This document shows positions 4,268-61,652 of a DNA stretch of 64,000 nt, piece after piece. The first letter of the stretch is position 1, and each line of letters starts with the position of its first letter. The notes beneath the pieces are model-generated. The model was not told the origin of the DNA. It did not search any database and was given only the letters and a program-made list of their open reading frames with translations. The translations under genes were made by a program, and so were the position numbers. The stretch is from Escherichia coli (GTDB lineage: Bacteria; Pseudomonadota; Gammaproteobacteria; Enterobacterales; Enterobacteriaceae). Location: assembly GCF_044324785.1 (NCBI RefSeq), contig NZ_CP172129.1. One strand, given 5' to 3'.

Positions 4268-5006
4268 TAGCAAAAAAAAAAGCAATCCCTCACAAGATAA
4301 ATATATCGATTTTTCATAAATATCAAATTGATATATAACATATGTTTTTTATTTCATTGCACTTGTCGATCATCGGGAATTTTGTCACAATTTCTCACGG
4401 ATAGTGTTCACATTGTTTCTGACCTGCATTTCAGGCGCGGGCGCTGCTTATGTATATAAGGGCCTGTGGTCGACGAATCAGCATAATCAGATCTTCCTGC
4501 GAGCAATTTCTTTCAGCGTATCAGGCAGCACTATCGGATTATCTACGTGCGTTTTTGATTCACATTGTGTGTGAAACTTCATACATCATGATTCGCTTTC
4601 CCTACTCAGTTCTGATGATTGTTTTTTATTCTATTAACACGGAGTTAAGATTCTACCCTCGGTGTCCTCATTATTAATGAGGAATGCTACCTATCTAAAA
4701 ACTGACCGAAACTTTGGGGCATCCCTGGAGGTTTCCAAGGAGAAAAAGGTGACAGTGATAGTGCCACATTGTGAGGAAATTCCTGAGAAACTCCTGGTTC
4801 ACACACATAATTCAGGAGTTTGCCATAGATAGTAACCAATTGTTTTATATTTTAAGACCATTAAATACGCGGCTACGATAGCGCTTTATATAATCATAAA
4901 CTGTAGAGATAAAATATCTGCTTCTCTGATAACACTAATTGAGTGTCTTAAACTAAGTAATTTCATTTTTCCCCCTTTAAAAGCAATATATGTGCAATAG
5001 TTGAAG

Positions 5007-7007: not shown

Positions 7008-7190
7008 TCATACCGTGATTATGTTGTCATGCACCTGTACACTGATAAAAGAAAGGGAGAACAGGAGGCTGGCTGAACAACCAATCCGTTCGTCCAGTTC
7101 AATGGCGGCTATCAGGTTCTGCTCCGCAATGTACTCACGAATGCGCTTCCTGTCCTGGCTGGTCAGCATGGTCCAGAATATCTCCATCAT
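7008..7190 (-). pseudogene. Truncated ParE/RelE-family toxin gene (first ~40 codons match 20033..20314, then diverges)
   Basis: N-terminus MMEIFWTML...IELDERIG matches the intact copy; loses homology at a deletion junction near 7055-7068. Confidence 0.65.
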
Positions 7191-11166: not shown

Positions 11167-12495
11167 CTTCTCAGACTACCGCTGGCGTTTTTTGAACGCC
11201 GAAAATTAGGTGATATCCAGTCACGTTTTGACTCCCTTGACACATTGAGGGCCACATTTACCACCAGTGTGATCGGGTTCATAATGGACAGCATTATGGT
11301 TGTCGGTGTTTGTGTGATGATGCTGTTATACGGAGGATATCTCACCTGGATAGTTCTCTGCTTTACCACAATTTACATTTTTATTCGTCTGGTGACATAC
11401 GGCAATTACCGACAGATATCAGAAGAATGTCTTGTCAGGGAGGCCCGTGCCGCCTCCTATTTTATGGAAACATTATATGGTATTGCCACGGTAAAAATCC
11501 AGGGGATGGTCGGAATTCGGGGGGCACACTGGCTTAATATGAAAATAGATGCGATAAATTCGGGTATTAAGCTAACCAGGATGGATTTGCTCTTCGGAGG
11601 AATAAATACCTTTGTTACCGCCTGTGATCAGATTGTAATTTTATGGCTGGGAGCAGGCCTTGTGATCGATAATCAGATGACAATAGGAATGTTTGTAGCG
11701 TTTAGTTCTTTTCGTGGGCAGTTTTCGGAAAGAGTTGCCTCTCTGACCAGTTTTCTTCTTCAGCTAAGAATAATGAGTCTGCACAATGAGCGCATTGCAG
11801 ATATTGCATTACATGAAAAGGAGGAAAAGAAACCTGAAATTGAAATCGTTGCTGATATGGGGCCAATATCCCTGGAAACCAATGGTTTAAGCTATCGTTA
11901 TGACAGTCAGTCAGCACCGATATTCAGTGCTCTGAGTTTATCTGTAGCTCCGGGGGAAAGTGTGGCTATAACTGGTGCTTCCGGTGCGGGAAAAACCACA
12001 TTAATGAAAGTACTATGTGGACTATTTGAACCTGATAGCGGGAGGGTACTGATAAATGGTATAGATATACGCCAAATTGGAATAAATAATTATCACCGGA
12101 TGATAGCCTGTGTTATGCAGGATGACCGGCTATTTTCAGGCTCAATTCGTGAAAATATCTGTGGTTTTGCAGAGGAAATGGATGAAGAGTGGATGGTAGA
12201 ATGTGCCAGAGCAAGTCATATTCATGATGTTATAATGAATATGCCAATGGGATATGAAACATTAATAGGTGAACTTGGGGAAGGTCTTTCTGGCGGTCAA
12301 AAACAGCGTATATTTATTGCACGAGCCTTATACCGGAAACCAGGAATATTATTTATGGATGAGGCAACCAGTGCTCTTGATTCAGAGAGTGAACATTTCG
12401 TGAATGTTGCCATAAAAAACATGAATATCACCAGGGTAATTATTGCACACAGAGAAACAACGTTGAGAACTGTTGATAGAGTTATTTCTATTTAA
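11167..12495 (+). pseudogene. cvaB: cvaB 3' fragment (transmembrane and ABC ATPase domains)
   Basis: Resumes in frame at the duplicated LLR codons; Walker A GASGAGKTT, ABC signature LSGGQKQR, Walker B ILFMDEATSALD. Confidence 0.85.
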
Positions 12496-20580: not shown

Positions 20581-20602
20581 TTATCACCTCGTCATTACTA
20601 CG

Positions 20603-20619
20603 TATATACACAGTATATA
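20603..20619. promoter_or_regulatory. Inverted repeat tatatac-aca-gtatata upstream of the antitoxin gene (likely autoregulatory operator)
   Basis: Palindrome about 23 bp upstream of the antitoxin start. Confidence 0.45.
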
Positions 20620-21190
20620 ACGATTCAGATATCGTCACCAGAATATGCCGCGTCAGCGGCATGGAAGGCGGCACTCTGTTGTTGCATATGACACAGGAGT
20701 AAAACCGCCGAAGCCCGGCGTAAGCCGGTACGGACTGATAGATTTCACCTTACCCATCCCCAGCCCTGCTAGGCCATATCCGCTTTCAGCCATGATAAAG
20801 CTTCTGTGCGCGGTCGGAGTGGTCCCGACGAGGGTTTACCCGAAGTCGGGGCGTATCTCCGCGTTAGCGGGCCGTCAGGGCCGCTTACGAGCGTGTACTC
20901 AATACTTTCAGCGAGAAGACTGACAGCCATGATGGAGTATAGTTACAACATTCATAATTAAAAGCGACTCTGTTCCGGCCCGAAGGGCCGGGGCGGGGCC
21001 GCTTTTCAGTTATGAGGGAGGGGCTTTGTGGTTTCAGTTCTGCGCTGGTTCGGGGTTTTTCTGGAGGTTGGTTTTGTGTGTTGTAACTAAAGTGGCTCCG
21101 GTTGGGGCCCGCCGTTTACGGTGGGAGGTGCATATCTGTCTGTCCACAGGACAGGCAGTGAATAGGTTTTCTTTTTAAATGAATGTAATT

Positions 21191-21228
21191 GGGGAGCCCG
21201 CAGAATTCGGAAAAAATCGTACGCTAAG
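21191..21228. repeat. 38-bp terminal inverted repeat of a Tn21-subgroup (Tn3-family) transposon (tnpA end)
   Basis: ggggagcccgcagaattcggaaaaaatcgtacgctaag immediately downstream of the tnpA stop. Confidence 0.75.
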
Positions 21229-24190
21229 GTTTTCCGGGCATCCGTAAGGGCCGAAACTTCCCGTCTTCCAGTCTGCGGCTCTGCCGCCAGACGTAATCGC
21301 CGGTTAGGTTGATGTGCTCCCAGCCCAGCGGCGACAGGAATTGCAGCAGCTCGCCGTCCACCGGCTTGCCGGCCTCGACCAACCCCTGGGTGGCGCGTTC
21401 CAGGTACACCGTGTTCCACAGCACGATAGCCGCCGTCACCAGGTTGAGGCCGCTGGCCCGGTAGCGCTGCTGCTCGAAGCTCCGATCCCTGATTTCCCCA
21501 AGGCGGTTGAAGAACACCGCCCTGGCCAGCGAGTTGCGCGCCTCACCTTTGTTCAGGCCGGCATGCACGCGGCGGCGCAGTTCAACACTTTGCAGCCAGT
21601 CCAGGATGAACAGCGTGCGCTCGATCCGGCCCAGCTCGCGCAGGGCCACGGCCAGTCCGTTCTGGCGCGGGTAGCTGCCGAGCTTGCGCAGCATCAGCGA
21701 GGCGGTGACGGTGCCCTGCTTGATCGAGCTGGCCAGGCGCAGGATGTCGTCCCAGTGGGCACGCACGTGCTTGATGTTCAGGGTGCCGCCGATCAGCGGG
21801 CGCAACGTCGGGTAGGCTTGCACGCCCTGCGGCACGTACAGCTTGGTTTCGCCGAGGTCGCGGATGCGCGGCGCGAAGCGGAAGCCTAGCAGGTGCATCA
21901 GGGCAAAGACGTGATCGGTGAAGCCGGCCGTGTCGGTGTAGTGCTCCTCGATCCGCAGGTCGGACTCGTGGTACAGCAGGCCGTCGAGCACATAGGTGGA
22001 ATCGCGGACGCCGACATTCACCACGCGGGTGCTGAACGGCGCGTACTGGTCGGAGATATGGGTATAGAACAGCCGTCCCGGCTCGCTACCGTACTTCGGG
22101 TTGACGTGCCCGGTGCTCTCGCCCCGGCCACCCGCGCGGAAGCGCTGGCCATCGGAGGATGAGGTCGTGCCGTCGCCCCAGTGGGCGGCAAAGGCGTGGC
22201 GATACTGGTGGTTGACCAGCTCGGCCAAGGCCGCCGAATAGGTTTCGTCGCGGATGTGCCAGGCTTGCAGCCAGGACAGCTTGGCGTAGGTCAGGCCGGG
22301 GCTCGACTCGGCCATCTTGGTCAGCCCGAGGTTGATCGCATCACCGAGGATTGCGGACAGCAGCAACGTCCTGTCTTTGGCCTCGGCCCCGTCCTTCAAG
22401 TGGGTGAAGTGGCGGCTGAAGCCCGTCCAGTCGTCCACGTCCATCAGCAGTTCGGTGATCTTGATGCGCGGCAGTAACTGGCTGGTTTGGTCGATCAGCG
22501 CCTGCGCCCGATCCGGCACCGCCGCATCCAGCGGGGTGATTTTCAGCCCTGACTCGGTGAGGATGGCATCGGGCAGCTCGTTGTCCTTGGCCAGGCGGGT
22601 GACGGTGGCCAACTGCTCGTCCAGCAGCTGCAAACGCTCTTCCAGGTACTGGTCGCTGTTCGGGTTGATCGCCAGGGGCAGGGCCTGCTCGCGCTTGAGT
22701 GCGGCGAACTTCTCGGCCGGCAGCAGGTAGTCGTCGAAGTCGCGGAACTGCCGCGAGCCCTTGACCCAGATGTCGCCGGAGCGCAGGGCGTTCTTCAGCT
22801 CGGACAGGGCGCAGATTTCGTAGAATTTCCGGTCGAGGCCTTCCGGGGTGATCACCAGCGGCTTCCAGCGCGGCTTGATGAAGGCCGTGGGTGCATCGGC
22901 CGGCACCTTGCGCAGGTTGTCGGCGTTCATCTCACGCAGGGTCTGCACGGCTGCCAGCACGCCTTGCGCGGCCGGCGCGGCGCGCAGTTCCAGCACCTCC
23001 AGCAAGGCCGGCGTGTAACGGCGCAGGGTGGCGAAGTTCTCGCCGACCAGGTGCAGGTGGTCGAAGCCTTCCGGCCGGGCCAGCAGCTCGGCCTCGCTGA
23101 CGCTCTCGGTGAACTCGTCCCAGGGAATCACCGCCTCGATGGCGGCATAGGGGTCGCTGCCGCTTTCCTTCGCTTCCAGCAGCGCCTGGCCGATCCTGGA
23201 GTACAGGCGCACCTTGTCGTTGATCGCCTTGCCCTGCTTCTGGAACTGCTGCTGATGCTTGTGCTTCGCGCCGCTGAACAGCTTGACCAGGATGCGGTCA
23301 TGCAGATCGACCAGCTCATCGATCACGGTCGCGGTGCTCTCCAGCACCACGGCGGCCAGGGTCGCGTAGCGGCGCTGCGGCTCGAACTTACCGAGGTCTT
23401 TGGGCGTCATCTGCCCACCCTCGCGGGCCAGCTTGAGCAGGCGGTTCTGGTGGATGTGCCGGCCCAGGCCTTCGGGCAAGTCCACCAACTGAAATGTCTT
23501 CAGCCGCTCGATGTGTTCCAGCATGTGCCGAGAGTTGGGTTTCAGCGGTGCCTGGCGCAGCCAGGTCAACCAGGTGATGCTGCTGCCGGCCTTGAGCTTC
23601 AACAGCTCGTCCAGCTTGGCCCGATGCGAGTCCGTGAGTGGTTCGACCAGGGCGCGGTAGACCCGCCGATTGGCTCGCGCAATGGCTTCCGAGCAGGCCC
23701 GGTCAATCACGCTCAGCGCCGGCAGGATGCGTCGTTTCTGCCGTAGGCTCTCCAGGGCCTGACCGGCCAGCAGCAAGCCTTTGTCGGTCTGCTGGGCCAG
23801 CTCGGTTAGCTCGCGCACCAGGGCGCGGAAGTCGGACAGGCCGAACGGGGCCAGTTGCAGGTAGGTGCGCAGTTCCTGGGCATGCTCGCGACGGGTCACG
23901 TCGCGCTCGCCGTACTTTGCCCAGCTCGCCGGCTCGGCCTGGACTTGCTTCGCCACCCACAGGATGACCGGCTCGGGCAGCTCGCTGTCGGTTCCCAGCG
24001 CGTAACCGGGGTAGCGCAGCAGGCAGAGCTGCACGGCGAAGCCGAGGCGGTTGGCGTCGCCGCGTCGCTGGCGGATCAGCGACAGGTCGGAGTCGTTGAA
24101 GGTGTAGTAGCGGATCAGGTCATCCTGGCTTTCCGGCAGCGCAAGCAGGGTGTCCCGCTCCGTGGCCGAGAGGATCAAGCGACGCGGCAT
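21224..24190 (-). CDS. tnpA: Tn3-family transposase TnpA (988 aa), Tn21/Tn1721 subgroup
   Basis: 988-aa product with a conserved DDE C-terminal region; followed by a serine-recombinase resolvase gene. Confidence 0.9.
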
Positions 24191-33976: not shown

Positions 33977-34796
33977 GGCACTGTTGCAAAGTTAGCGATG
34001 AGGCAGCCTTTTGTCTTATTCAAAGGCCTTACATTTCAAAAACTCTGCTTACCAGGCGCATTTCGCCCAGGGGATCACCATAATAAAATGCTGAGGCCTG
34101 GCCTTTGCGTAGTGCACGCATCACCTCAATACCTTTGATGGTGGCGTAAGCCGTCTTCATGGATTTAAATCCCAGCGTGGCGCCGATTATCCGTTTCAGT
34201 TTGCCATGATCGCATTCAATCACGTTGTTCCGGTACTTAATCTGTCGGTGTTCAACGTCAGACGGGCACCGGCCTTCGCGTTTGAGCAGAGCAAGCGCGC
34301 GACCATAGGCGGGCGCTTTATCCGTGTTGATGAATCGCGGGATCTGCCACTTCTTCACGTTGTTGAGGATTTTACCCAGAAACCGGTATGCAGCTTTGCT
34401 GTTACGACGGGAGGAGAGATAAAAATCGACAGTGCGGCCCCGGCTGTCGACGGCCCGGTACAGATACGCCCAGCGGCCATTGACCTTCACGTAGGTTTCA
34501 TCCATGTGCCACGGGCAAAGATCGGAAGGGTTACGCCAGTACCAGCGCAGCCGTTTTTCCATTTCAGGCGCATAACGCTGAACCCAGCGGTAAATCGTGG
34601 AGTGATCGACATTCACTCCGCGTTCAGCCAGCATCTCCTGCAGCTCACGGTAACTGATGCCGTATTTGCAGTACCAGCGTACGGCCCACAGAATGATGTC
34701 ACGCTGAAAATGCCGGCCTTTGAATGGGTTCATGTGCAGCTCCATCAGCAAAAGGGGATGATAAGTTTATCACCACCGACTATTTGCAACAGTGCC
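33977..34796 (-). mobile_element. IS26 copy 3 (820 bp), no target-site duplication
   Basis: Same terminal repeats; flanks gatttacc and gttttcga differ. Confidence 0.95.
34029..34733 (-). CDS. tnpA: IS26 transposase Tnp26
   Basis: Identical protein to the other two copies. Confidence 0.95.
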   Translation of the reverse strand: MNPFKGRHFQRDIILWAVRWYCKYGISYRELQEMLAERGVNVDHSTIYRWVQRYAPEMEKRLRWYWRNPSDLCPWHMDETYVKVNGRWAYLYRAVDSRGRTVDFYLSSRRNSKAAYRFLGKILNNVKKWQIPRFINTDKAPAYGRALALLKREGRCPSDVEHRQIKYRNNVIECDHGKLKRIIGATLGFKSMKTAYATIKGIEVMRALRKGQASAFYYGDPLGEMRLVSRVFEM

Positions 34797-38701: not shown

Positions 38702-40443
38702 TGAATCACAAAGACTGGGATTTGGTCAACCGCCGCCTGGTGGCAAAAATGTTGTCTGAGCTGGAGTATGAGCAGGTTTTCCACGCGGAATCTCAGGGCG
38801 ATGACCGCTACTGCATTAACCTGCCGGGAGCACAATGGCGCTTCATCGCTGAACGTGGTATCTGGGGCTGGCTCTGGATTGATGCTCAAACTCTGCGCTG
38901 CGCGGACGAGCCAGTACTGGCTCAGACGCTGCTGATGCAGCTAAAGCAGGTACTGTCAATGAGCGATGCAACCGTTGCTGAGCATATGCAGGATTTGTAT
39001 GCCACGCTGCTGGGCGACCTGCAACTACTGAAAGCCCGTCGCGGGCTGAGCGCCAGTGACCTGATTAATCTTAATGCCGACCGCCTGCAATGCCTGCTGA
39101 GCGGTCATCCTAAATTCGTTTTTAATAAAGGTCGCCGTGGCTGGGGTAAAGAGGCGCTGGAACGATATGCGCCAGAGTATGCCAACACCTTCAGACTGCA
39201 CTGGCTGGCGGTAAAACGTGAACATATGATCTGGCGCTGTGATAACGAGATGGATATTCATCAGTTGTTGACGGCCGCAATGGATCCGCAGGAGTTTGCC
39301 CGCTTCAGTCAGGTCTGGCAGGAAAACGGACTGGATCATAACTGGCTGCCGCTGCCGGTACATCCGTGGCAGTGGCAGCAAAAAATCGCTACCGACTTCA
39401 TCGCTGATTTTGCCGAAGGCAGGATGGTGTCTCTCGGCGAGTTTGGCGACCAGTGGCTCGCCCAGCAGTCGCTGCGTACCCTGACCAACGCCAGTCGCCG
39501 GGGCGGGCTGGATATCAAGCTGCCGCTGACCATCTACAACACCTCATGCTACCGGGGGATCCCTGGCAGATACATCGCTGCCGGACCACTGGCTTCACGC
39601 TGGCTACAACAGGTTTTTGCGACCGACGCCACCCTAGTGCAAAGCGGCGCAGTGATACTTGGTGAACCGGCTGCAGGCTATGTCTCCCATGAAGGCTATG
39701 CCGCGCTTGCCTGGGCTCCCTATCGCTACCAGGAAATGCTTGGTGTTATCTGGCGGGAGAATCCGTGCCGCTGGCTGAAACCGGATGAAAGTCCGGTTCT
39801 GATGGCAACACTGATGGAGTGCGACGAAAACAATCAGCCGCTGGCAGGCGCATATATAGACCGCTCCGGGCTGGACGCTGAAACCTGGCTTACGCAACTG
39901 TTCCGGGTGGTCGTGGTTCCTCTGTATCACCTGCTTTGCCGCTACGGTGTCGCGCTTATTGCACATGGACAAAATATAACTCTCGCCATGAAAGAGGGGG
40001 TTCCACAGCGTGTTCTGCTGAAAGACTTCCAGGGCGATATGCGACTGGTGAAAGAAGAGTTCCCCGAAATGGACTCTTTGCCTCAGGAGGTTCGTGATGT
40101 TACATCCCGCCTGAGTGCGGACTACTTAATCCATGATTTGCAGACGGGTCACTTCGTGACAGTACTGCGTTTTATTTCGCCACTGATGGTTCGTCTTGGC
40201 GTACCTGAAAGGCGATTTTATCAACTGCTGGCAGCAGTGTTGAGTGATTACATGAAAAAACATCCACAAATGTCAGAGCGTTTTGCGCTTTTCTCACTTT
40301 TCAGGCCACAAATCATTCGCGTGGTGCTGAACCCGGTAAAACTGACCTGGCCTGATCTGGATGGCGGCAGCCGCATGCTGCCGAATTACCTTGAGGATCT
40401 GCAAAATCCGCTGTGGCTGGTAACTCAGGAATATGAATCATGA
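38701..40443 (+). CDS. iucC: Aerobactin synthetase IucC (580 aa)
   Basis: IucA/IucC family; overlapping start/stop with neighbours. Confidence 0.9.
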   Translation: MNHKDWDLVNRRLVAKMLSELEYEQVFHAESQGDDRYCINLPGAQWRFIAERGIWGWLWIDAQTLRCADEPVLAQTLLMQLKQVLSMSDATVAEHMQDLYATLLGDLQLLKARRGLSASDLINLNADRLQCLLSGHPKFVFNKGRRGWGKEALERYAPEYANTFRLHWLAVKREHMIWRCDNEMDIHQLLTAAMDPQEFARFSQVWQENGLDHNWLPLPVHPWQWQQKIATDFIADFAEGRMVSLGEFGDQWLAQQSLRTLTNASRRGGLDIKLPLTIYNTSCYRGIPGRYIAAGPLASRWLQQVFATDATLVQSGAVILGEPAAGYVSHEGYAALAWAPYRYQEMLGVIWRENPCRWLKPDESPVLMATLMECDENNQPLAGAYIDRSGLDAETWLTQLFRVVVVPLYHLLCRYGVALIAHGQNITLAMKEGVPQRVLLKDFQGDMRLVKEEFPEMDSLPQEVRDVTSRLSADYLIHDLQTGHFVTVLRFISPLMVRLGVPERRFYQLLAAVLSDYMKKHPQMSERFALFSLFRPQIIRVVLNPVKLTWPDLDGGSRMLPNYLEDLQNPLWLVTQEYES

Positions 40444-41717
40444 AAAAAAGTGTCGATTTTATTGGTGTAGGGACAGGGCCATTTAATCTCAGCATTGCTG
40501 CGTTGTCACATCAGATCGAAGAACTGGACTGTCTCTTCTTTGATGAACATCCTCATTTTTCCTGGCATCCGGGTATGCTGGTACCGGATTGTCATATGCA
40601 GACCGTCTTTCTGAAAGATCTGGTCAGTGCTGTTGCACCTACAAATCCCTACAGTTTTGTTAACTATCTGGTGAAGCACAAAAAGTTCTATCGCTTCCTT
40701 ACAAGCAGACTACGTACAGTATCCCGTGAAGAGTTTTCTGACTACCTCCGCTGGGCTGCTGAAGATATGAATAACCTGTATTTCAGTCATACCGTTGAAA
40801 ACATTGATTTCGATAAAAAACGTCGATTGTTTCTGGTGCAAACCAGCCAGGGAGAATATTTTGCCCGCAATATCTGCCTTGGTACAGGAAAACAACCTTA
40901 TTTACCACCCTGTGTGAAGCATATGACACAATCCTGTTTCCATGCCAGTGAAATGAATCTTCGTCGGCCGGACCTTAGTGGAAAACGGATAACCGTGGTT
41001 GGTGGAGGACAGAGTGGTGCAGACCTGTTCCTTAATGCATTACGCGGGGAATGGGGAGAAGCGGCGGAAATAAACTGGGTCTCCCGGCGTAATAATTTTA
41101 ACGCACTGGATGAGGCTGCTTTTGCTGATGAGTATTTTACACCTGAATATATTTCAGGCTTCTCCGGACTGGAGGAAGATATTCGCCATCAGTTACTGGA
41201 TGAGCAGAAAATGACATCGGATGGCATCACTGCCGATTCTTTACTGACCATTTATCGTGAGTTGTACCACCGTTTTGAAGTTCTGAGAAAACCAAGAAAT
41301 ATCCGTCTGCTACCCAGCCGCTCGGTAACAACTCTGGAAAGTAGTGGTCCTGGCTGGAAGTTGCTGATGGAGCATCATCTGGATCAGGGCAGGGAGAGCC
41401 TGGAAAGTGATGTGGTGATTTTCGCCACAGGTTACCGTTCTGCGTTGCCACAAATACTTCCCTCACTGATGCCCCTGATCACCATGCACGATAAGAACAC
41501 CTTTAAAGTGCGTGATGACTTCACTCTGGAATGGAGTGGCCCGAAAGAGAACAACATCTTCGTGGTCAACGCCAGTATGCAAACCCATGGCATCGCCGAA
41601 CCCCAGCTCAGCCTGATGGCATGGAGATCTGCACGTATTCTTAATCGCGTAATGGGACGTGATTTATTCGATCTCAGTATGCCGCCCGCCCTGATTCAGT
41701 GGCGCAGCGGCACCTAG
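40440..41717 (+). CDS. iucD: L-lysine N6-monooxygenase IucD (425 aa)
   Basis: FAD-binding N-terminus IGVGTGPFNLSIAA; operon position. Confidence 0.9.
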   Translation: MKKSVDFIGVGTGPFNLSIAALSHQIEELDCLFFDEHPHFSWHPGMLVPDCHMQTVFLKDLVSAVAPTNPYSFVNYLVKHKKFYRFLTSRLRTVSREEFSDYLRWAAEDMNNLYFSHTVENIDFDKKRRLFLVQTSQGEYFARNICLGTGKQPYLPPCVKHMTQSCFHASEMNLRRPDLSGKRITVVGGGQSGADLFLNALRGEWGEAAEINWVSRRNNFNALDEAAFADEYFTPEYISGFSGLEEDIRHQLLDEQKMTSDGITADSLLTIYRELYHRFEVLRKPRNIRLLPSRSVTTLESSGPGWKLLMEHHLDQGRESLESDVVIFATGYRSALPQILPSLMPLITMHDKNTFKVRDDFTLEWSGPKENNIFVVNASMQTHGIAEPQLSLMAWRSARILNRVMGRDLFDLSMPPALIQWRSGT

Positions 41718-41798
41718 GGAAAACGCAGCCGGAGGCTGCTTCTTTAACTCGCTACACAGCATCTTTGGGCTGATTTTTTCCGCCCGTATGGAGGAATA

Positions 41799-44000
41799 AT
41801 GATGATAAGCAAAAAGTATACGCTTTGGGCTCTCAACCCACTGCTTCTTACCATGATGGCGCCAGCAGTCGCTCAACAAACCGATGATGAAACGTTCGTG
41901 GTGTCTGCCAACCGCAGCAATCGCACCGTAGCGGAGATGGCGCAAACCACCTGGGTTATCGAAAACGCCGAACTGGAACAGCAGATTCAGGGCGGCAAAG
42001 AGCTTAAAGACGCACTGGCTCAGCTGATCCCTGGCCTTGACGTCAGCAGCCGGAGCCGCACCAACTACGGTATGAATGTGCGTGGCCGCCCGCTGGTCGT
42101 GCTGGTTGACGGCGTGCGTCTCAACTCTTCACGTACCGACAGCCGACAACTGGACTCTATAGATCCTTTTAATATCGACCATATTGAAGTGATCTCCGGT
42201 GCGACGTCCCTGTACGGCGGCGGCAGTACCGGTGGCCTGATCAACATCGTGACCAAAAAAGGCCAGCCGGAAACCATGATGGAGTTTGAGGCTGGCACCA
42301 AAAGTGGCTTTAGCAGCAGTAAAGATCACGATGAACGCATTGCCGGAGCTGTCTCCGGCGGAAATGAGCATATCTCCGGACGTCTTTCCGTGGCATATCA
42401 GAAATTTGGCGGCTGGTTTGACGGTAACGGCGATGCCACCTTGCTTGATAACACCCAGACCGGCCTGCAGTACTCCGATCGGCTGGACATCATGGGAACT
42501 GGTACGCTGAACATCGATGAATCCCGGCAGCTTCAGTTGATCACACAGTACTATAAAAGCCAGGGCGACGACGATTACGGGCTTAATCTCGGGAAAGGCT
42601 TCTCTGCCATCAGAGGGACCAGCACGCCATTCGTCAGTAACGGGCTGAATTCCGACCGTATTCCCGGCACTGAGCGGCATTTGATCAGCCTGCAGTACTC
42701 TGACAGCGCTTTTCTGGGACAGGAGCTGGTCGGTCAGGTTTACTACCGCGATGAGTCGTTGCGATTCTACCCGTTCCCGACGGTAAATGCGAACAAACAG
42801 GTGACGGCTTTCTCTTCGTCACAGCAGGACACCGACCAGTACGGCATGAAACTGACTCTGAACAGCAAACCGATGGACGGCTGGCAAATCACCTGGGGGC
42901 TGGATGCTGATCATGAGCGCTTTACCTCCAACCAGATGTTCTTCGACCTGGCTCAGGCAAGCGCTTCCGGAGGGCTGAACAACAAGAAGATTTACACCAC
43001 CGGGCGCTATCCGTCGTATGACATCACCAACCTGGCGGCCTTCCTGCAATCAGGCTATGACATCAATAATCTCTTTACCCTCAACGGTGGCGTACGCTAT
43101 CAGTACACTGAAAACAAGATTGATGATTTCATCGGCTACGCGCAGCAACGGCAGATTGCCGCCGGGAAGGCTACATCCGCCGACGCCATTCCTGGCGGCT
43201 CAGTCGATTACGACAACTTCCTGTTCAACGCCGGTCTGCTGATGCACATCACCGAACGCCAGCAGGCATGGCTCAACTTCTCCCAGGGCGTGGAGCTGCC
43301 GGACCCGGGTAAATACTATGGTCGCGGCATCTATGGTGCTGCAGTGAACGGCCATCTTCCTCTAACAAAGAGTGTGAACGTCAGCGACAGCAAGCTGGAA
43401 GGCGTGAAAGTCGATTCTTATGAGCTGGGCTGGCGCTTTACTGGCAATAATCTGCGTACCCAAATCGCGGCCTACTATTCGATTTCTGATAAGAGCGTGG
43501 TGGCGAATAAAGATCTGACCATCAGCGTGGTGGACGACAAACGCCGTATTTACGGCGTGGAAGGTGCGGTGGACTACCTGATTCCTGATACTGACTGGAG
43601 TACCGGAGTGAACTTCAACGTGCTGAAAACTGAGTCGAAAGTGAACGGTACCTGGCAGAAATACGATGTGAAGACAGCAAGCCCATCAAAAGCGACAGCC
43701 TACATTGGCTGGGCACCGGACCCGTGGAGTCTGCGCGTGCAGAGCACCACCTCCTTTGACGTGAGCGACGCGCAGGGCTACAAGGTCGATGGCTATACCA
43801 CCGCGGATCTGCTCGGCAGTTATCAGCTTCCGGTGGGTACACTCAGCTTCAGCATTGAAAACCTCTTCGACCGTGACTACACCACTGTCTGGGGGCAGCG
43901 TGCACCACTGTACTACAGCCCGGGTTACGGCCCAGCGTCACTGTACGACTACAAAGGCAGGGGCCGAACCTTTGGTCTGAACTACTCTGTGCTGTTCTGA
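41799..44000 (+). CDS. iutA: TonB-dependent ferric aerobactin receptor IutA (733 aa)
   Basis: Signal peptide, TonB box-like ETFVVSA, C-terminal F. Confidence 0.9.
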   Translation: MMISKKYTLWALNPLLLTMMAPAVAQQTDDETFVVSANRSNRTVAEMAQTTWVIENAELEQQIQGGKELKDALAQLIPGLDVSSRSRTNYGMNVRGRPLVVLVDGVRLNSSRTDSRQLDSIDPFNIDHIEVISGATSLYGGGSTGGLINIVTKKGQPETMMEFEAGTKSGFSSSKDHDERIAGAVSGGNEHISGRLSVAYQKFGGWFDGNGDATLLDNTQTGLQYSDRLDIMGTGTLNIDESRQLQLITQYYKSQGDDDYGLNLGKGFSAIRGTSTPFVSNGLNSDRIPGTERHLISLQYSDSAFLGQELVGQVYYRDESLRFYPFPTVNANKQVTAFSSSQQDTDQYGMKLTLNSKPMDGWQITWGLDADHERFTSNQMFFDLAQASASGGLNNKKIYTTGRYPSYDITNLAAFLQSGYDINNLFTLNGGVRYQYTENKIDDFIGYAQQRQIAAGKATSADAIPGGSVDYDNFLFNAGLLMHITERQQAWLNFSQGVELPDPGKYYGRGIYGAAVNGHLPLTKSVNVSDSKLEGVKVDSYELGWRFTGNNLRTQIAAYYSISDKSVVANKDLTISVVDDKRRIYGVEGAVDYLIPDTDWSTGVNFNVLKTESKVNGTWQKYDVKTASPSKATAYIGWAPDPWSLRVQSTTSFDVSDAQGYKVDGYTTADLLGSYQLPVGTLSFSIENLFDRDYTTVWGQRAPLYYSPGYGPASLYDYKGRGRTFGLNYSVLF

Positions 44001-44072
44001 CCGGTATTCCTTTACAACAAAGGTACGCTGATATCAACATGGCCGCTGACAGCCAAGTTGATATCATATAAT

Positions 44073-44133
44073 ACACGACATAATCTGTAGTCAGGGAGGA
44101 TAGACTCTTTACTGACTACAGATTATGTCGTGT
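44073..44133. repeat. Perfect 22-bp inverted repeat with 17-nt spacer downstream of iutA
   Basis: acacgacataatctgtagtcag ... ctgactacagattatgtcgtgt. Confidence 0.8.
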
Positions 44134-44524
44134 TCCGTGCTCATTTCCTCAAAAAATACAAGAAAAGAATTAGTATTCTAACAAAAAGTGAAATAAATTG
44201 TATCAAACTCCCTCTTTTAATCCTGTTGAGTAAATCAGCTTTTGCAATAGGATTGAAAGAGTGTAAGTGGAATCTCTTCCGGATACTCGTTACCACCGTG
44301 GCTAGAATATCTACGGCTGCGGGCCAGTAATAGATTAAGTGATAACAGCTGTCTGGAAATGTAGGGGCGTATCCACTAATCATAATCATTGTGAGATAAA
44401 TATTACGGGGCATTTTATAATGAATAAAATATACTCTCTAAAATATTGTCATATTACCAATACCATGAAGGTGATGCTGCCAACTTACTGATTTAGTGTA
44501 TGATGGTGTTTTTGAGGTGCTCCA

Positions 44525-44800
44525 GTGGCTTCTGTTTCTATCAGCTGTCCCTCCTGTTCAGCTACTGACGGGGTGGTGCGTAACGGCAAAAGCACCGCCG
44601 GACATCAGCGCTATCTCTGCTCTCACTGCCGTAAAACATGGCAACTGCAGTTCACTTACACCGCTTCTCAACCCGGTACGCACCAGAAAATCATTGATAT
44701 GGCCATGAATGGCGTTGGATGCCGGGCAACTGCCCGCATTATGGGCGTTGGCCTCAACACGATTTTACGTCACTTAAAAAACTCAGGCCGCAGTCGGTAA
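44525..44800 (+). CDS. insA: IS1 InsA
   Basis: [43 protein letters not shown]... Confidence 0.9.
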
Positions 44801-45222
44801 CCTCGCGCATACAGCCGGGCAGTGACGTCATCGTCTGCGCGGAAATGGACGAACAGTGGGGCTATGTCGGGGCTAAATCGCGCCAGCGCTGGCTGTTTTA
44901 CGCGTATGACAGTCTCCGGAAGACGGTTGTTGCGCACGTATTCGGTGAACGCACTATGGCGACGCTGGGGCGTCTTATGAGCCTGCTGTCACCCTTTGAC
45001 GTGGTGATATGGATGACGGATGGCTGGCCGCTGTATGAATCCCGCCTGAAGGGAAAGCTGCACGTAATCAGCAAGCGATATACGCAGCGAATTGAGCGGC
45101 ATAACCTGAATCTGAGGCAGCACCTGGCACGGCTGGGACGGAAGTCGCTGTCGTTTTCAAAATCGGTGGAGCTGCATGACAAAGTCATCGGGCATTATCT
45201 GAACATAAAACACTATCAATAA
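44719..45222 (+). CDS. insB: IS1 InsB (expressed as InsAB' by frameshift)
   Basis: Overlapping -1 frame ORF typical of IS1. Confidence 0.85.
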
Positions 45223-45521
45223 GTTGGAGTCATTACCGCCTTGACCATCAGATAGTTATTTTGGTGCTAGGGATACTGAGTGTGAACAGTTAGCGCGCGT
45301 CCTCGCCAGTTAGCTCGCTACGCTCGGTTACACGACGGCTACGAGTACTAGTGATAATTATTGACTGAGGTATGTGCTCTTCCTGTTTCCTTTTTTGATG
45401 TGTTGCTCTCATTTTAAACAACTTTGCGGTTTTTTGACTACTTTGCAATTTTGTTGTTGCTTTGCAATAAAATGCAAGATTAAATGAAAATATGCAAAGC
45501 AATGATTAAAGGATGTTCAGA

Positions 45522-46688
45522 ATGAGACTCATGGAAACACTTAACCAGTGCATAAACGCTGGTCATGAAATGACGAAGGCTATCGCCATTGCACAGTTTA
45601 ATGATGACAGCCCGGAAGCGAGGAAAATCACCCGACGCTGGAGAATAGGTGAAGCAGCGGATTTAGTTGGAGTATCTTCTCAGGCTATCAGGGATGCCGA
45701 GAAAGCAGGCCGGCTACCGCACCCGGATATGGAAATACGAGGACGGGTTGAGCAACGTGTTGGTTATACAATTGAACAAATTAATCATATGCGTGACGTG
45801 TTTGGTACGAGACTACGACGTGCTGAAGACGTATTTCCGCCGGTGATTGGAGTTGCTGCTCATAAAGGGGGCGTTTACAAAACCTCTGTTTCTGTTCATC
45901 TTGCTCAGGATCTGGCTCTGAAGGGATTACGTGTTCTGCTCGTGGAAGGTAACGACCCCCAGGGAACAGCATCGATGTATCACGGCTGGGTGCCAGATCT
46001 TCATATTCATGCAGAGGATACTCTCCTTCCCTTCTATCTTGGGGAAAAGGACGATGTCACTTATGCAATAAAGCCTACTTGCTGGCCTGGGCTTGACATT
46101 ATTCCTTCCTGTTTGGCTCTGCACCGCATTGAAACTGAGCTAATGGGCAAATTTGATGAAGGTAAATTGCCCACCGATCCACACCTGATGCTCCGACTGG
46201 CCATTGAAACCGTCGCTCATGACTATGATGTCATTGTCATTGACAGCGCGCCTAACCTAGGTATCGGCACGATTAATGTTGTATGTGCTGCTGATGTGTT
46301 GATTGTCCCCACGCCTGCTGAGTTGTTCGACTACACTTCCGCTCTGCAGTTTTTCGATATGCTTCGTGATCTGCTCAAAAACGTAGATCTTAAAGGATTC
46401 GAGCCTGATGTACGTATTTTGCTTACCAAATACAGTAATAGTAATGGTTCTCAGTCCCCGTGGATGGAGGAGCAAATTCGGGACGCCTGGGGAAGCATGG
46501 TCCTAAAAAATGTTGTGCGTGAAACGGATGAAGTTGGTAAAGGTCAGATCCGGATGAGAACTGTTTTTGAACAGGCTATTGATCAACGCTCTTCAACAGG
46601 TGCCTGGAGAAATGCCCTTTCTATTTGGGAACCTGTCTGCAATGAAATTTTCGATCGTTTGATTAAACCACGCTGGGAGATTAGATAA
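45522..46688 (+). CDS. sopA: Partition ATPase SopA (ParA family)
   Basis: Matches F SopA as recalled; deviant Walker [17 protein letters not shown] repeats in the promoter. Confidence 0.9.
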
Positions 46689-47659
46689 TGAAGCGTGCGC
46701 CTGTCATTCCAAAACATACGATTAAGACTCAACCGCTTGAAGATACTCCGTCATCGGCACCAGCTGCACCGATGGTGGATTCGTTAATTGCGCGCGTAGG
46801 AGCTATGGCTCGTGGCAATGCTATTACTTTGCCTGTATGTGGTAGGGACGTGAAATTTACCCTTGAGGTGCTCCGGGGAGATAGTGTTGAGAAGACCTCT
46901 CGGGTATGGTCAGGTAATGAACGTGACCAGGAACTGCTTACCGAAGACGCCCTGGATGATCTTATCCCTTCTTTTCTACTGACAGGTCAGCAGACACCAG
47001 CATTCGGTCGAAGAGTGTCTGGGGTCATAGAAATTGCCGATGGGAGCCGCCGTCGTAAAGCTGCTGCACTTACAGAAAGTGATTATCGAGTTCTGGTTGG
47101 TGAGCTGGATGATGAGCAGATGGCTGCATTGTCCAGATTGGGTAACGATTATAGGCCAACAAGTGCTTATGAACGTGGTCAGCGTTATGCAAGCCGATTG
47201 CAGAATGAATTTGCTGGAAATATTTCTGCGCTGGCTGATGCAGAAAATATTTCACGTAAGATTATTACCCGCTGTATCAACACAGCTAAACTGCCTAAAT
47301 CAGTTGTTGCTCTTTTTTCTCATCCCGGTGAACTATCTGCCCGGTCAGGTGATGCACTTCAAAGAGCTTTTACAGATAAAGAAGAATTACTTAAGCAGCA
47401 GGCATCTAACCTTCACGAGCAGAAAAAAGCAGGAGTGATATTTGAAGCTGAAGAAGTCATCACTCTTTTAACGTCTGTGCTTAAAACGTCATCTGCCTCA
47501 AGAACTAGCTTAAGCTCACGACATCAGTTTGCTCCTGGAGCGACAGTGTTGTACAAGGGCGATAAAATGGTGTTAAACCTAGATAGATCTCGTATTCCAA
47601 CTGAGTGTATAGAGAGAATTGAAGCCATTCTTAAGGAACTTGAAAAAGCGGCACTTTGA
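46688..47659 (+). CDS. sopB: Centromere-binding protein SopB (ParB family, 323 aa)
   Basis: Matches F SopB as recalled; immediately downstream of sopA. Confidence 0.9.
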
Positions 47660-47749
47660 TGCGGCACGTTTTAGTCTACATTTATCTGTCTTTACTTAAT
47701 TTCCTTTAGCACAGGCTAGAAAACATAACTAACTGGCCTGAATATTATA

Positions 47750-48093
47750 TCTGGGACCACGGTCCCAGTTGTATTGTCGGTCTGATAATCAGTCTGGGAC
47801 CACGGTCCCACTCATATTGTCGGTCTGATAATCAGTCTGGGACCACGGTCCCACTCATATTGTTGGTCTGCTAATCAGTCTGGGACCACGGTCCCACTCA
47901 TATTGTCGGTCTGCTAATCAGTCTGGGACCACGGTCCCACTCATATTGTTGGTCTGATTATCGGTCTGGGACCACGGTCCCACTCATATTGTTAGTCTGA
48001 TAATCAGTCTGGGACCGCGGTCCCACTCGTATTGTTGGTCTGCTAATCAGTCTGGGACCACGGTCTCACTTGTATTGTCGATCTGATTATCAG
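47750..48093. repeat. sopC: sopC centromere: 8 tandem 43-bp repeats, each with the inverted repeat tgggaccacggtccca
   Basis: Counted directly; repeats abut with no spacers (not CRISPR). Confidence 0.9.
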
Positions 48094-48699
48094 CGTGAGA
48101 CTACGATTCCATTAATGCCTGCCAGTGAGTGTGTGGAACATATCTTGGCCAGTGGCTTGGTCTGTGATGTGCTGCGTATACCGGGTGAACCGCCCCGCCG
48201 CTTGTTTGACCGCTATATTCTGCGGGAGTTTTCTTGGAGGCACGGGATGAAATCCGCAGCATGGCGGATGCCCTGGCAAAAATCCGGAAATGATGACGAT
48301 GGCGGGGAAAATCCCCGCCTTTTTCCTGCCGGTCCCCGGACAGAGCACAAAGGAAGTCGCCGCCGGCTCCGCTTTACCCGGCCATGCGGAGCATGGCCTT
48401 GTGGGGGTTCAGTTATGTGGACGTCGAGTCGTGTGCGGGCTGTGCCGTGCCTCCATCTTAGCCGGGCTGGCGTTGATGCAAGCAACTGTCTTAATGGGAG
48501 GCGGTTATCTGAAAAAAGTACGGGATAATATTATGGAATCGCCCATCTCAAGCAAAAAACTGACTCGCTTCGATACTACGCTGACAGGCTGTTTTGAGCG
48601 AGATATCTCTCGTGTCGGGCATCGACATTTTAAATGATTCTAAATAATATGAGCAGGGTCAGTCTTATTAAAGATTAAAACACCGGATAACAAGTTTTA

Positions 48700-49281
48700 T
48701 TGATTATGGATGAAGAGAAAACTCGTGCTGAAGTGGCACACATAGAATTTATTTCATATGGTACGTCTCGAATTTTTGATAGGCGTATGAGATCCTTAGA
48801 CTGGAAGCGTAAGGTTGTCACCTTCCTTGGGGTCTTTGTTCCACTGATGATAGGTTGTGCAGTTTTATCATTCGGACTTGAAGCTCCATTTCTGCCGCTT
48901 TGCATCACAATTGCCGGTGTGGCAAGTATCATGCAATTGGGGTTCTCGCTGTGGTCTTTGGTTTCCGGATGGGATCGCTCATATAGTGATTGCATGGCTT
49001 CCGTTAAGGAAAATACAGCCATTTATAACCTAGCTGGTAGTGTTCGCAAGAAAATAGGTAAGCTTGACGAAGCCAAATTGGAAATTTTGATAGACGATTT
49101 GACGGAAAAATTTGAGCGAAGGGAGCAGGAAGACTTAACTTTGTGTGTGAGTGATAAAGAACTTCGTTATGCAAACCGTATGTCCTGTTTCTACTTCAAA
49201 AAAAAATGCCATATTTGTAATGTCGTTCCCCTAACTTTGAAACCGGGAAAATGTGTTTGTGATGGTTGTGGGAAATTTTAA
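48700..49281 (+). CDS. Hypothetical protein (193 aa) with two central hydrophobic helices and a C-terminal Cys cluster (CHIC...CVCDGC)
   Basis: Hydrophobic stretches VVTFLGVFVPLMIGCAVLSF and LPLCITIAGVASIMQLGFSLWSLV; region is AT-richer than its flanks. Confidence 0.5.
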   Translation: MIMDEEKTRAEVAHIEFISYGTSRIFDRRMRSLDWKRKVVTFLGVFVPLMIGCAVLSFGLEAPFLPLCITIAGVASIMQLGFSLWSLVSGWDRSYSDCMASVKENTAIYNLAGSVRKKIGKLDEAKLEILIDDLTEKFERREQEDLTLCVSDKELRYANRMSCFYFKKKCHICNVVPLTLKPGKCVCDGCGKF

Positions 49282-49293
49282 CAAGGAGAACAT

Positions 49294-49506
49294 ATGAGTA
49301 GTGCAAAAATTCTTAACGCTTACTTCGAGGCTTCTGAAGAAGATCGAAAGGAGTTCCTACGGGTTCTTAGTCATTTTTATAAGGATAACCGAAGAGTACC
49401 TCTGCAAGAGGGCATGGAGAGCTTTGCCGTCAATGAAAGCATCCGTAAATCGCAGTCAATTAACTTTGCCCCTATGCAAGGTGGGTGTCCACTCTGCGGC
49501 AAGTAA
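49294..49506 (+). CDS. Hypothetical small protein (70 aa) ending in CPLCGK
   Basis: 13 bp downstream of the previous ORF, same strand, with a ribosome-binding site (aaggag); likely co-transcribed. Confidence 0.4.
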   Translation: MSSAKILNAYFEASEEDRKEFLRVLSHFYKDNRRVPLQEGMESFAVNESIRKSQSINFAPMQGGCPLCGK

Positions 49507-49766
49507 CGACCAAAGCCGCTTGACTAGCGGCTTGATAGATTTCTTTATATTGTAACTAGCATCTTTACATCCTGTTAAAAAAGTGGCTATTGCCCGCTAT
49601 CTTGCAATTCTCCGTATTTGGTACAAAAACAGCCGAAAGCTGCACTATCAGCAGCTATGAGCAGCGGCCCCACTGACATCGCGGATGCTTTGTCCGTGGG
49701 AGGGCGGATCACAACAGGCCTGCGGGATAAGTTGTTCTTTCTGTCATTATGTAAAATGACCGGCAG

Positions 49767-50768
<1,002 letters not shown>

Positions 50769-52208: not shown

Positions 52209-52442
52209 AACAGGTGATACAGGGCAGGCGGTGGAGGCCGCCTGTCAGCCCGCGCGAACCCCCCTGGCAGGCTGACGCCTGCCGGAAGGGAAGCGGGCCA
52301 CGCTGACGCGTCGCCCGTTACCCTTCCCGTTAGTGATGTGTCCGGAATGTTTTTTCTGATGTTATTTTTCTGTGGTTACCGTGTTTGTTATTGTTCTTCT
52401 TCTTTTTCCTCTTCCTCTTCTTTCCGTTCCTCTCCTGTTTAT

Positions 52443-52972
52443 GGCTTTTCCGGGCGTCCCCCTGGCGGGGCGGGCTGTCGTGAACGGAGCCAGCGGAGCT
52501 GTCTCCGCCCTGGCGGGCTTCCATCCCTGACGCGAAACCATGGCTTGCAGCGACCGTTCCGGTCGCGCCGCCTCTGTCGCGCCGTGGCCTGCGCTCCCGG
52601 CATCCCGGCAAAAGGCGCCGGAATGTAAGGAGCAACGCCGTTTCGCAAACCGCGCTTCACGTCGTTGCGGCGGGTCCCTGCTCATTGCCTGCCAAGTGCC
52701 ACACACCCGTATGAGTCCCTGTCGCCGGGGGCTGAGACAGCCACAACCTGCCGCACTGACTGTCCAGGGTAAATGAACAGCCCACAAAATTTTTTACCCA
52801 GAACCCGGTAAAAAATTTTGCGTTCTGCCCAGGACAGGTGCGTCAGGCCGTGGCAGTGATGCCCCTTGCGGCGAAGGTTCTCAAACGGGTGAAGTTCATA
52901 CCACAGGGAATACAGCAGCAGGTTCCCGCGAAACGTCAAAACCGCGGCTCCCGAAACTCAACGGGTGATGTT
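52443..52972 (+). repeat. Structured ~530-bp repeat, copy A (Frpo/ssi-like single-strand promoter element)
   Basis: Near-identical to 55701-56228 and 61091-61618; internal palindromes such as caaaattttttaccc...gggtaaaaaattttg. Confidence 0.6.
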
Positions 52973-55456: not shown

Positions 55457-55700
55457 AGACTCCGGGCAGGCGGGAGGATAAATGCTCGTCTGCCCGCGCC
55501 GGGAAAAGACCGCGCGCCGGTGGCGCTGAAAGGGGCCGCGCTCACGCGCCGCCCCTTTCATTACGCGGAAATTCTGCTGTGGGCTTCTGTCTTTTCAGAT
55601 CTGTCATTTGTCTGTTACTGATGATGTTCCTGCTACTGCTACTGTTTTTCTTTTTTCTGCTGCTCTGATTACTGTCTGTCTTGTTCTTCTTCTGCCTGTG

Positions 55701-56228
55701 CCTTTTCCGGGCGTCCCCCTGGCGGGGCGGGCTGTCGTGAACGGAGCCAGCGGAGCTGTCTCCGCCCTGGCGGGCTTCCATCCCTGACGCAAAACCCCTG
55801 GCTTGCAGCGACTGTTCCGGTCGCGCGCCTCTGTCGCGCCGTGGCCTGCGCTCCTGGCATCCCGGCAAAAGGCCGCCGGGATGTAAGGCGCAACGCCGTT
55901 TCGCAAACCGCGCTTCACGTCGTTGCGGCGGGTCCCTGCCCGTTGTTATGTCCGGTGCCATTCACCTGTTTAAGCCCCTGTCGCCGGGGGCAAAGACAGC
56001 CACAACCGTCTCCGCCAGTCCAGGGGTGAAATGCACATCCCGCAAAACTTTTTGCCCAAAAGCAGGCAAAAACTTTTGCGGTCTGCCCCCGGACAGTCGT
56101 TTCCTGCCGTGGCAGTGATGCCCCTTGCGGCGAAGGTTTTCAAAAAGGTGATGGTGAATACCGGAGGGAACAAAAGGCAGGTCCCCGCAAAACGTCAAAA
56201 CCGCGGCTCCCGAAACTCAAAAGATGAT
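55701..56228 (+). repeat. Structured ~530-bp repeat, copy B (Frpo/ssi-like), upstream of ssb
   Basis: See copy A. Confidence 0.6.
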
Positions 56229-56261
56229 GGGGCTGAAAACATCAACAGAAGGAGACACATC

Positions 56262-60785: not shown

Positions 60786-61090
60786 CAGGGCTGATGCTGG
60801 TCTGACTGCACTGAAGCGCCTTTATAAAGGGGCTGCTGGTTCGCCGGTGGCCCCTTTCTCCTTGCTGGCATTGTGCGGGCATGAACAACCAGACTGCCAG
60901 GAAGGCCGTTTCCCTCCGGGAACGGGGATGAACGTGCGCCTGCGGCGCCCGTTCTTTTCCCCCGCCTTCTCTGTTTATGACCTGTCAGAAATCACATCAC
61001 CTTCCCTTTGATTATTCTCTTTTTCCTCCTGTTCTGACTCTGATTACTGCTGCCCTGATTATTGTCTGTTTTGTTGTTCTCCTGCTTATG

Positions 61091-61618
61091 CCTTTTCCGG
61101 GCGTCCCCCTGGCGGGGCGGGCTGTCGTGAACGGAGCCAGCGGAGCTGTCTCCGCCCTGGCGGGCTTCCATCCCTGACGCGAAACCCCGGGCTTGCAGCG
61201 ACCGTTCCGGTCGCGCCGCCTCTGTCGCGCCGTGGCCTGCGCTCCCGGCATCCCGGCAAAAGGCCGCCGGGATGTAAGGGGCAACGCCGTTTCGCAAACC
61301 GCGCTTCACGTCGTTGCGGCGGGTTCCTGCCCGTTGTTGTGTCCGGTGCCATTCACCTGTTTAAGCCCCTGTCGCCGGGAGCTGATACAGCCACAACCTG
61401 CCGCACTGACTGTCCAGGGTAAATGAACAGCCCACAAAATTTTTTACCCAAAACCCGGTAAAAAATTTTGCGTTCTGCCCAGGACAGGTGCGTCAGGCCG
61501 TGGCAGTGATGCCCCTTGCGGCGAAGGTTCTCAAACAGGTGATGGTGAATACCGGAGGGAACAAACGGCAGGTCCCCGCAAAACGTCAAAACCGCGGCTC
61601 CCGAAACTCAACAGATGA
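61091..61618 (+). repeat. Structured ~530-bp repeat, copy C (Frpo/ssi-like)
   Basis: See copy A. Confidence 0.6.
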
Positions 61619-61652
61619 TGGGGGCTGAAAACCAGAGAGAGGAGAAAGCAGG

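Follow-up and report, generated by a model that had tools for sequence, protein, structure and literature searches.

The closest described relative of the locus studied here is the sopABC partition system of the F plasmid, where repE and incC of the RepFIA replicon lie directly upstream of sopA. In F, SopB binds the palindromes of the centromere sopC, which has 12 units, and nucleoid-bound SopA-ATP, stimulated by the SopB-sopC complex, positions plasmid copies ahead of division; the sopA promoter is repressed by SopA, together with SopB, through four CTTTGC motifs, and the system works in cis, on whichever molecule carries sopC. Plasmids of the ColV type also carry the system: pAPEC-1 has complete sopABC along with RepFIIA/FIC and RepFIB replicons (PMC2626276), and in pRK100 RepFIB and RepFIIA have both been shown with minireplicons to be functional (PMC8978152). 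Here we describe a sop locus on a 64,000-bp stretch of Escherichia coli plasmid DNA (contig NZ_CP172129.1; hereafter the window), in which sopA is preceded by the insertion sequence (IS) IS1 and, beyond it, by the aerobactin receptor gene iutA (Table 1). An initial annotation had taken the locus for an orphan partition system, left behind when an IS1-associated deletion removed or relocated an adjacent RepFIA replicon. We favour a different reading, to which, together with the history set out below, we assign a probability of roughly 85%: the locus would be a complete and, by prediction, functional F-type SopABC (type Ia ParABS) cassette of a RepFIB/FII ColV-ColIa backbone.

SopA of the window is 99.74% identical in amino acid sequence to F SopA, from which it differs by a single change (K2R), and it matches the NCBIfam SopA equivalog NF010259 over residues 1-388 of 388 with 872 bits (cut-off 725). 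SopB aligns with F SopB over its full length with 12 substitutions in 323 residues, scores 636 bits against the equivalog NF010252 (cut-off 274), and matches the chains of solved SopB structures (Protein Data Bank 3MKY, 3MKW, 3MKZ and 3KZ5). The sopC repeat has a period of 43 and 8.0 copies (92% matches), and the perfect palindrome TGGGACCNNGGTCCCA recurs at 43-bp spacing in seven of the eight units, the remaining unit being degenerate. (Positions 44470-47659, to which the initial annotation had assigned sopAB-sopC, do hold sopA and sopB, but sopC falls outside them.) The CTTTGC operator repeats had been described as retained, and they are: direct copies lie at 45422, 45441 and 45460 and an inverted GCAAAG at 45494, in register with F 11690, 11709, 11728 and 11762 (numbering of our F locus, L002). 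A full-length SopA, as a ParA-type ATPase extended at its N terminus for DNA binding, SopB directly downstream, tandem 43-bp sopC repeats built on 7-bp inverted repeats and a four-motif operator would together qualify the locus as an F-type SopABC.

When the genes are compared with those of F, sopA shows 58 synonymous differences and one non-synonymous difference, with a ratio of non-synonymous to synonymous substitution rates (dN/dS) of 0.004 at a dS of 0.25, and sopB shows 54 and 14, respectively, with a dN/dS of 0.07 at a dS of about 0.25. This pattern marks the sop allele as an old, separately evolving one under strong purifying selection, and not as a decaying remnant. The breakpoint on the IS1 side lies 284 bp upstream of sopA (the adjacency had been noted correctly, with a distance of 285 bp) and leaves the entire promoter and operator intact; because IS1 sits about 60 bp outside the region conserved between F and Klebsiella plasmids, sop regulation should be unaffected. 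By analogy with F Sop, SopB of this allele would load on the palindromes of sopC, the plasmid copies would be positioned by nucleoid-bound SopA-ATP that SopB-sopC has activated, and SopA and SopB would repress their own synthesis through the CTTTGC operator. Since sopABC acts in cis via sopC, no adjacent replicon is needed and the cassette should act on any replicon, for which reason the term orphan is misleading.

Which replicon this cassette belongs to was addressed by searching the window and its siblings, the replicons of the siblings standing in for those of the window plasmid. The absence of an adjacent initiator, already pointed out in the initial annotation, was confirmed, as tblastn searches of the window with F RepE, CcdA, CcdB and RepFIB RepB gave no match. 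(From comparison with 134q, described next, the window probably includes an IncQ repC, in an RSF1010-derived piece of the resistance region.) The complete sibling 134q, a plasmid of E. coli 144 (NZ_CP023363.1) that was read whole from four pieces, is 99.99% identical to window positions 34797-64000. The possibility that an intact RepFIA lies elsewhere on the plasmid, which would have told against a deletion, was not borne out in this sibling: in the whole of 134q, tblastn detected no RepE, and blastn neither oriS nor incC. Likewise, a blastn comparison of F 45700-49565 with 134q gave nothing beyond weak resD-related matches and one 53-bp match, and searches of the window and 134q for ccdAB and resD gave no CcdA or CcdB match and just distant tyrosine-recombinase matches, to intI1 and the RepFIB-linked int. 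What defines a RepFIA (mini-F) replicon, namely repE, the oriS/incB/incC iterons and ccdAB with resD, was thus not found in the window or in 134q. The replicons of 134q are RepFIB at 22167-23144, 19 kb from sopA, and FII with repA at 96127-96984 (record coordinates).

Note that MOB-suite gives 134q, and also pO157 (NC_002128.1), the label IncFIA. We rejected this label as evidence of RepE in both cases: 134q is without RepE, oriS and incC, and pO157 has an IS at the repE position in the 14 kb around sop that were read. The label may reflect an FII-family repA cluster or a RepFIA remnant, and it would mislead replicon checks.

The DNA between IS1 and sopA identifies the former neighbour more directly. 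Homology with F starts at 45297, which corresponds to F 49566, 225 bp upstream of sopA and downstream of incC. Comparison with the F RepFIA map, which the initial annotation had put forward as a check, therefore goes against a deletion of RepFIA by IS1, as F homology stops at this point and the 59 bp beyond it are foreign to F. A BLAST search of all the loci compared here gave no second occurrence of this 59-bp segment, and a contig scan for it returned solely a mis-binned contig of a metagenome-assembled genome (MAG) with the identical IS1 junction. Metagenome contigs were scanned for copies of the 59 bp not preceded by the final base of IS1, which gave contig OBZF01001512, and the junction in this contig, used as a query, gave three complete IS1-free plasmids: pLR-24_1 (NZ_AP027495.1), p170Kb (NZ_CP102245.1) and plasmid A of E. 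coli M10 (NZ_CP010201.1). All three plasmids encode SopA WP_001238646.1, the same accession as in the siblings of the window, and their sop regions are 96.6-99.1% identical to that of the window; the leading region of pLR-24_1 and p170Kb is about 99.5% identical.

In all four IS1-free relatives the 59 bp are followed on the left by 6 bp (TTATAA) and then by DNA homologous to F 39197-40536, a stretch that in F itself lies just beyond RepFIB. Further left, the three plasmids carry remnants of the IS481 and IS3 families and hypothetical open reading frames (ORFs), with no Rep domain in this spacer, and the RepFIB initiator is reached 5.5 kb (M10 plasmid A) to 7.3 kb (pLR-24_1) from sopA. The int-repB-sopAB backbone module, with a RepB-family initiator upstream of sopA and divergent from it, is found in these relatives and, at a distance of 750 bp, in a Klebsiella IncFIB(K) plasmid, but not in the window. 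RepE was sought in the IS1-free relatives and not found; pLR-24_1, which was examined whole by tblastn, has no RepE, its replicons being RepFIB and FII. In F, about 9 kb (F 40537-49565, comprising pif, oriV, ccdAB, resD, repE and incC) sits where the relatives have 66 bp. (Three ORFs of 86, 99 and 288 amino acids upstream of sopA in OBZF01001512 were considered as FII copB/repA and rejected: the 288-amino-acid product matches IS3-family transposases, the adjoining 99-amino-acid product fits IS3 orfA, and that of 86 amino acids gave no family match.) Because of the IS1-free relatives, the ColV junction can be said to derive from an arrangement that was already without RepFIA. On this comparison, the 59-bp segment is a remnant of the RepFIB-side spacer of an IS1-free ancestor, and the replicon that neighboured this sop allele appears as RepFIB, which was displaced, not deleted.

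We propose that the ancestral order was int - repB - spacer - sopAB, with sopABC a few kb from RepFIB, and that in the ColV plasmids an IS1-associated event swapped the spacer (about 6.4 kb when measured against pLR-24_1) for the IS1-bounded sit-aerobactin module. Compared with pLR-24_1, ColV plasmids have 1.3 kb of other DNA and this module in the place of the spacer. As stated in the initial annotation, IS1 has no target-site duplication; a 9-bp duplication was sought and the flanks, TACCATGAA and GCCTTGACC, differ. An IS1 without a duplication points to recombination or rearrangement at IS1 rather than to simple insertion, and we suggest that the missing duplication reflects such an event and not the loss of RepFIA. 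The earlier claim that an IS1 event removed or relocated the adjacent replicon thus survives in part, in that the junction is one of rearrangement and RepFIA is missing, but RepFIA was not what was deleted, and the displaced neighbour was RepFIB.

Several points weigh against this history or leave parts of it loose. A simple insertion intermediate, with the ancestral left flank, IS1 and sop and with a duplication, was not found in PLSDB, and the junction may have arisen either by IS1-IS1 recombination or by adjacent deletion. The data are compatible both with a gain of pif-RepFIA by F and with an earlier, IS1-independent loss elsewhere. Furthermore, we infer the window plasmid's own replicons from its siblings, and the junction of IS26 with shiF (34796/34797), which is discussed below, was absent from PLSDB and from the RefSeq complete E. 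coli genomes.

The alternative that survives best concerns the older of these steps. It holds that sop was once linked to RepFIA and that an IS1-independent deletion of about 9 kb (pif and RepFIA, F 40537-49565) from an F-like ancestor preceded IS1. In its favour, synteny holds on either side of the F-specific 9 kb, the two flanks have diverged from F to about the same degree (92.8% and 92-94% identity), and pLR-24_1 carries a resD homologue (90% amino acid identity to F ResD) elsewhere on the plasmid. (This homologue, at 20585-21404 of the pLR-24_1 record, is about 60 kb from sop, is weakly similar to the oriV-proximal region of F, and has neither ccdAB nor repE as a neighbour; a RepFIA-like region of which a fragment was displaced may be its source.) However, neither breakpoint is marked by IS ends or repeats, and a Klebsiella IncFIB(K) plasmid (NZ_CP040862.1), in which sop is more diverged (83% nucleotide identity), has int, repB and sopAB adjacent and no RepE. 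The order there is int, a RepB-family initiator, 750 bp of iterons, sopA and sopB. The iteron core ATTGACTGCGGTATG recurs around repB in this plasmid, and its sopA-proximal copy corresponds by homology to the single ATTGACTGAGGTATG that the window carries some 150 bp ahead of sopA (45359-45373); the same element is found at F 11629-11644, at about 7063-7078 in pO157 and at 4940-4955 in Klebsiella (numbering of our loci L002, L007 and L016, respectively). That a homologue of a RepFIB(K)-type iteron has been kept upstream of sopA in F, pO157 and the window lineage favours an original linkage of RepFIB with sop that was interrupted, in the F lineage, by the insertion of pif-RepFIA. We regard the older deletion as unlikely, although a real contender.

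These comparisons suggest that the linkage of RepFIB with sop is the older one and that of mini-F RepFIA with sop secondary, in which case the F lineage would have acquired pif and RepFIA by insertion at a point between RepFIB and sop, and ATTGACTGAGGTATG may be a relic iteron that links sop to RepFIB-type replicons. We put forward only tentatively, and at less than even odds, the fuller proposal that sopABC is by descent the partition module of a RepFIB-type iteron replicon, that the repE-incC-sopABC arrangement is secondary, and that the relic iteron perhaps still couples RepFIB control to sop. Of the points made here, only this proposed RepFIB-sop ancestry and the possible relic iteron are mildly new.

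The idea with which the initial annotation began, that sop is what remained of a RepFIA (mini-F-type) replicon after an IS1-mediated deletion took repE, oriS and incC and left sopABC an orphan, draws on the position of repE-incC in F and on the missing IS1 duplication. A genuine remnant of this kind does exist in pO157, where the order is ccdAB-resD-IS-sopAB, with the IS at the position of repE. Against this idea for the window, F homology there ends at 45297, short of IS1; in four IS1-free relatives, themselves without RepE, the 59 bp adjoin DNA like F 39197-40536 and not incC; and IS1 lies 6 bp from the end of the F 40536-like DNA, which leaves no room for a lost RepFIA. This explanation is already largely refuted, and we hold it to be very improbable. 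Hardly credible at all is the view of sop as a decaying relic, no longer functional, that travels with the leading region, for which one might cite the eight sopC units against the 12 of F and the post-segregational killing system (hok) in the leading region of the siblings, given that the sopA and sopB ORFs are intact, the dN/dS values are as low as 0.004 and 0.07 at a dS of about 0.25, the promoter and operator are conserved, seven perfect palindromes predicted to bind SopB are left, and the junction is kept in at least 582 plasmids.

This last figure is the number of PLSDB plasmids in which the IS1-sop junction was found, a lower bound; both junctions together (iutA-IS1-sopA) occur in 273 PLSDB records. 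Many ColV/ColIa plasmids, pRK100 (CP060383) and pCERC5 (KU664810) among them, have iutA-IS1-sopAB with 100% identity over 6 kb, and the arrangement is an ordinary, well-known and previously described one in ColV-type plasmids. In pAPEC-O1-ColBM, iutA-IS1 is joined to other DNA, and other records have IS1-sop with a different left flank; these varied partners on either side indicate that IS1 behaves as a recombination junction. (The exact E. coli ColV IS1-sopA junction is also present on the 5-kb SFGN01000139.1, filed under the MAG of a Lachnospiraceae bacterium, which is almost certainly a binning error.)

The gene beyond IS1 is iutA, as the initial annotation had it. Its product is annotated as IutA WP_000973517.1 in a 100%-identical sibling and matches the NCBIfam TonB-dependent siderophore receptor. 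The left inverted repeat of IS1 (GGTGATGCTGCCAACTTACTGAT) and its right end (...AAGTTGGAGTCATTACC) were read directly from the sequence and fit terminal inverted repeats of about 23 bp, its A6C frameshift motif is TTAAAAAAC, and both frames match NCBIfam IS1 transposases. This copy, a well-known one, bounds the aerobactin module on the right, and it shares 99.7% identity with the left-hand IS1 of sit-iuc in 134q. The window contains just one IS1, whereas in 134q two inverted copies flank sit-iuc, an organization that has been described before, without duplication (PMC4707298). A recent composite transposition of IS1-flanked sit-iuc was considered and rejected, since the outer 9-bp flanks in 134q, GAAAAAGCA and GCCTTGACC, differ; an IS1-bounded composite aerobactin transposon with an outer duplication was found neither in the window nor in 134q. 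Between iutA and IS1 lie a 15-bp inverted repeat (44029-44066) and, after it, a perfect 22-bp inverted repeat with a 17-nucleotide loop (44073-44133), a putative hairpin; the two may act as terminators, or a small mobile element may have left them behind.

Table 1. Features of the sop locus and its surroundings in the window.
Feature	Coordinates	Strand	Description
IS26	33977-34796		Joins the resistance region to 134q position 31675, inside the 3' end of a shiF-like major facilitator superfamily (MFS) gene
iutA	41799-44000	+	733-amino-acid ORF; ferric aerobactin receptor; last gene of the iucABCD-iutA module
IS1 (IS1A type)	44470-45237	+	768 bp; insA 44525-44800 and insB' 44719-45222, both intact
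59-bp segment	45238-45296	+	Not homologous to F or pO157; directly right of IS1
sopA upstream/promoter region	45297-45521	+	Common to F, pO157 and Klebsiella IncFIB(K) plasmids
sopA	45522-46688	+	388 amino acids; type Ia ParA ATPase and autorepressor
sopB	46688-47659	+	323 amino acids; ParB-family centromere-binding protein
sopC centromere	47750-48093	+	8 tandem 43-bp units; downstream of sopB

A second rearrangement would explain why the window is without an initiator. Relative to 134q, window positions 1-30780 are inverted, and the simplest reading is that an IS26-mediated inversion moved the segment with sit and RepFIB across to the opposite side of the plasmid, and hence out of the window. 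Owing to this rearrangement, RepFIB in the window plasmid probably lies further from sopA than the 19 kb seen in 134q. The IS26 concerned abuts the shiF-like MFS gene, which lies upstream of iucA, at its truncated 3' end, and the Tn21/IS26 resistance region, by comparison with 134q, holds blaTEM-1, sul2-strAB and dfrA5.

On the other side of sop, an ISEc32 (IS110 family) transposase gene lies downstream of sopC on the minus strand in the leading region (49767-50738). The same insertion is present in the IS1-free pLR-24_1 and p170Kb, and it is therefore older than the IS1 event. A repeat of about 540-590 bp occurs three times between sop and oriT (52426-52970, 55654-56240 and 61044-61632; 86-92% identical), is also found in the IS1-free relatives, and may represent the repeated single-strand promoter (ssi/Frpo-like) regions known from the leading regions of F-like plasmids.

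These findings bear on how such loci are read. The presence of sopABC without repE in an IncF virulence plasmid is neither a sign of a broken RepFIA nor a basis for IncFIA typing. By prediction, the locus provides a very common ColV backbone with its active partition system, and stable inheritance of that backbone probably depends on it; plasmid curing could thus be aimed at the locus, and plasmids that carry an F-type sop may be incompatible with it at the level of partition. The comparison also illustrates cleanly how backbone modules are reshuffled by IS1 and IS26 while remaining undamaged themselves, and it gives a modest clue to the origins of the mini-F region.

Among known systems, F sopABC shares with the window the gene order, SopA (99.7%), SopB (96.3%), 43-bp repeats with a 16-bp palindrome and the four operator motifs; it differs in nucleotide sequence (92.2% identity over 45297-48111, the differences in sopA being nearly all synonymous) and in its neighbour, which in the window is not incC/repE. 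The ColV, ColBM and ColIa plasmids (pRK100, pCERC5, 134q and pAPEC-1) share RepFIB and FII replicons, the lack of RepFIA and the IS1-bounded aerobactin module, but the window lacks the sit side of this module and has a resistance region bounded by IS26 directly next to shiF. The IS1-free pLR-24_1, p170Kb and M10 plasmid A share the 59-bp segment and have neither IS1 nor the aerobactin module. In the Klebsiella IncFIB(K) module the sop promoter region is conserved, and int, RepB, sopA and sopB have the same order and orientation as in the RepFIB lineage; in NZ_CP040862.1, Int is 92% and RepB 58% identical to 134q Int and RepFIB RepB, respectively, and SopA is 97.7% identical to F SopA, with about 83% identity in sop DNA. 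Finally, pO157 resembles the window in having sopAB without a repE gene and with an IS element upstream, but unlike the window it keeps ccdAB-resD and the F-type upstream sequence and is without the 59-bp segment. Thus pO157 fits the model of a RepFIA remnant, and the window does not.

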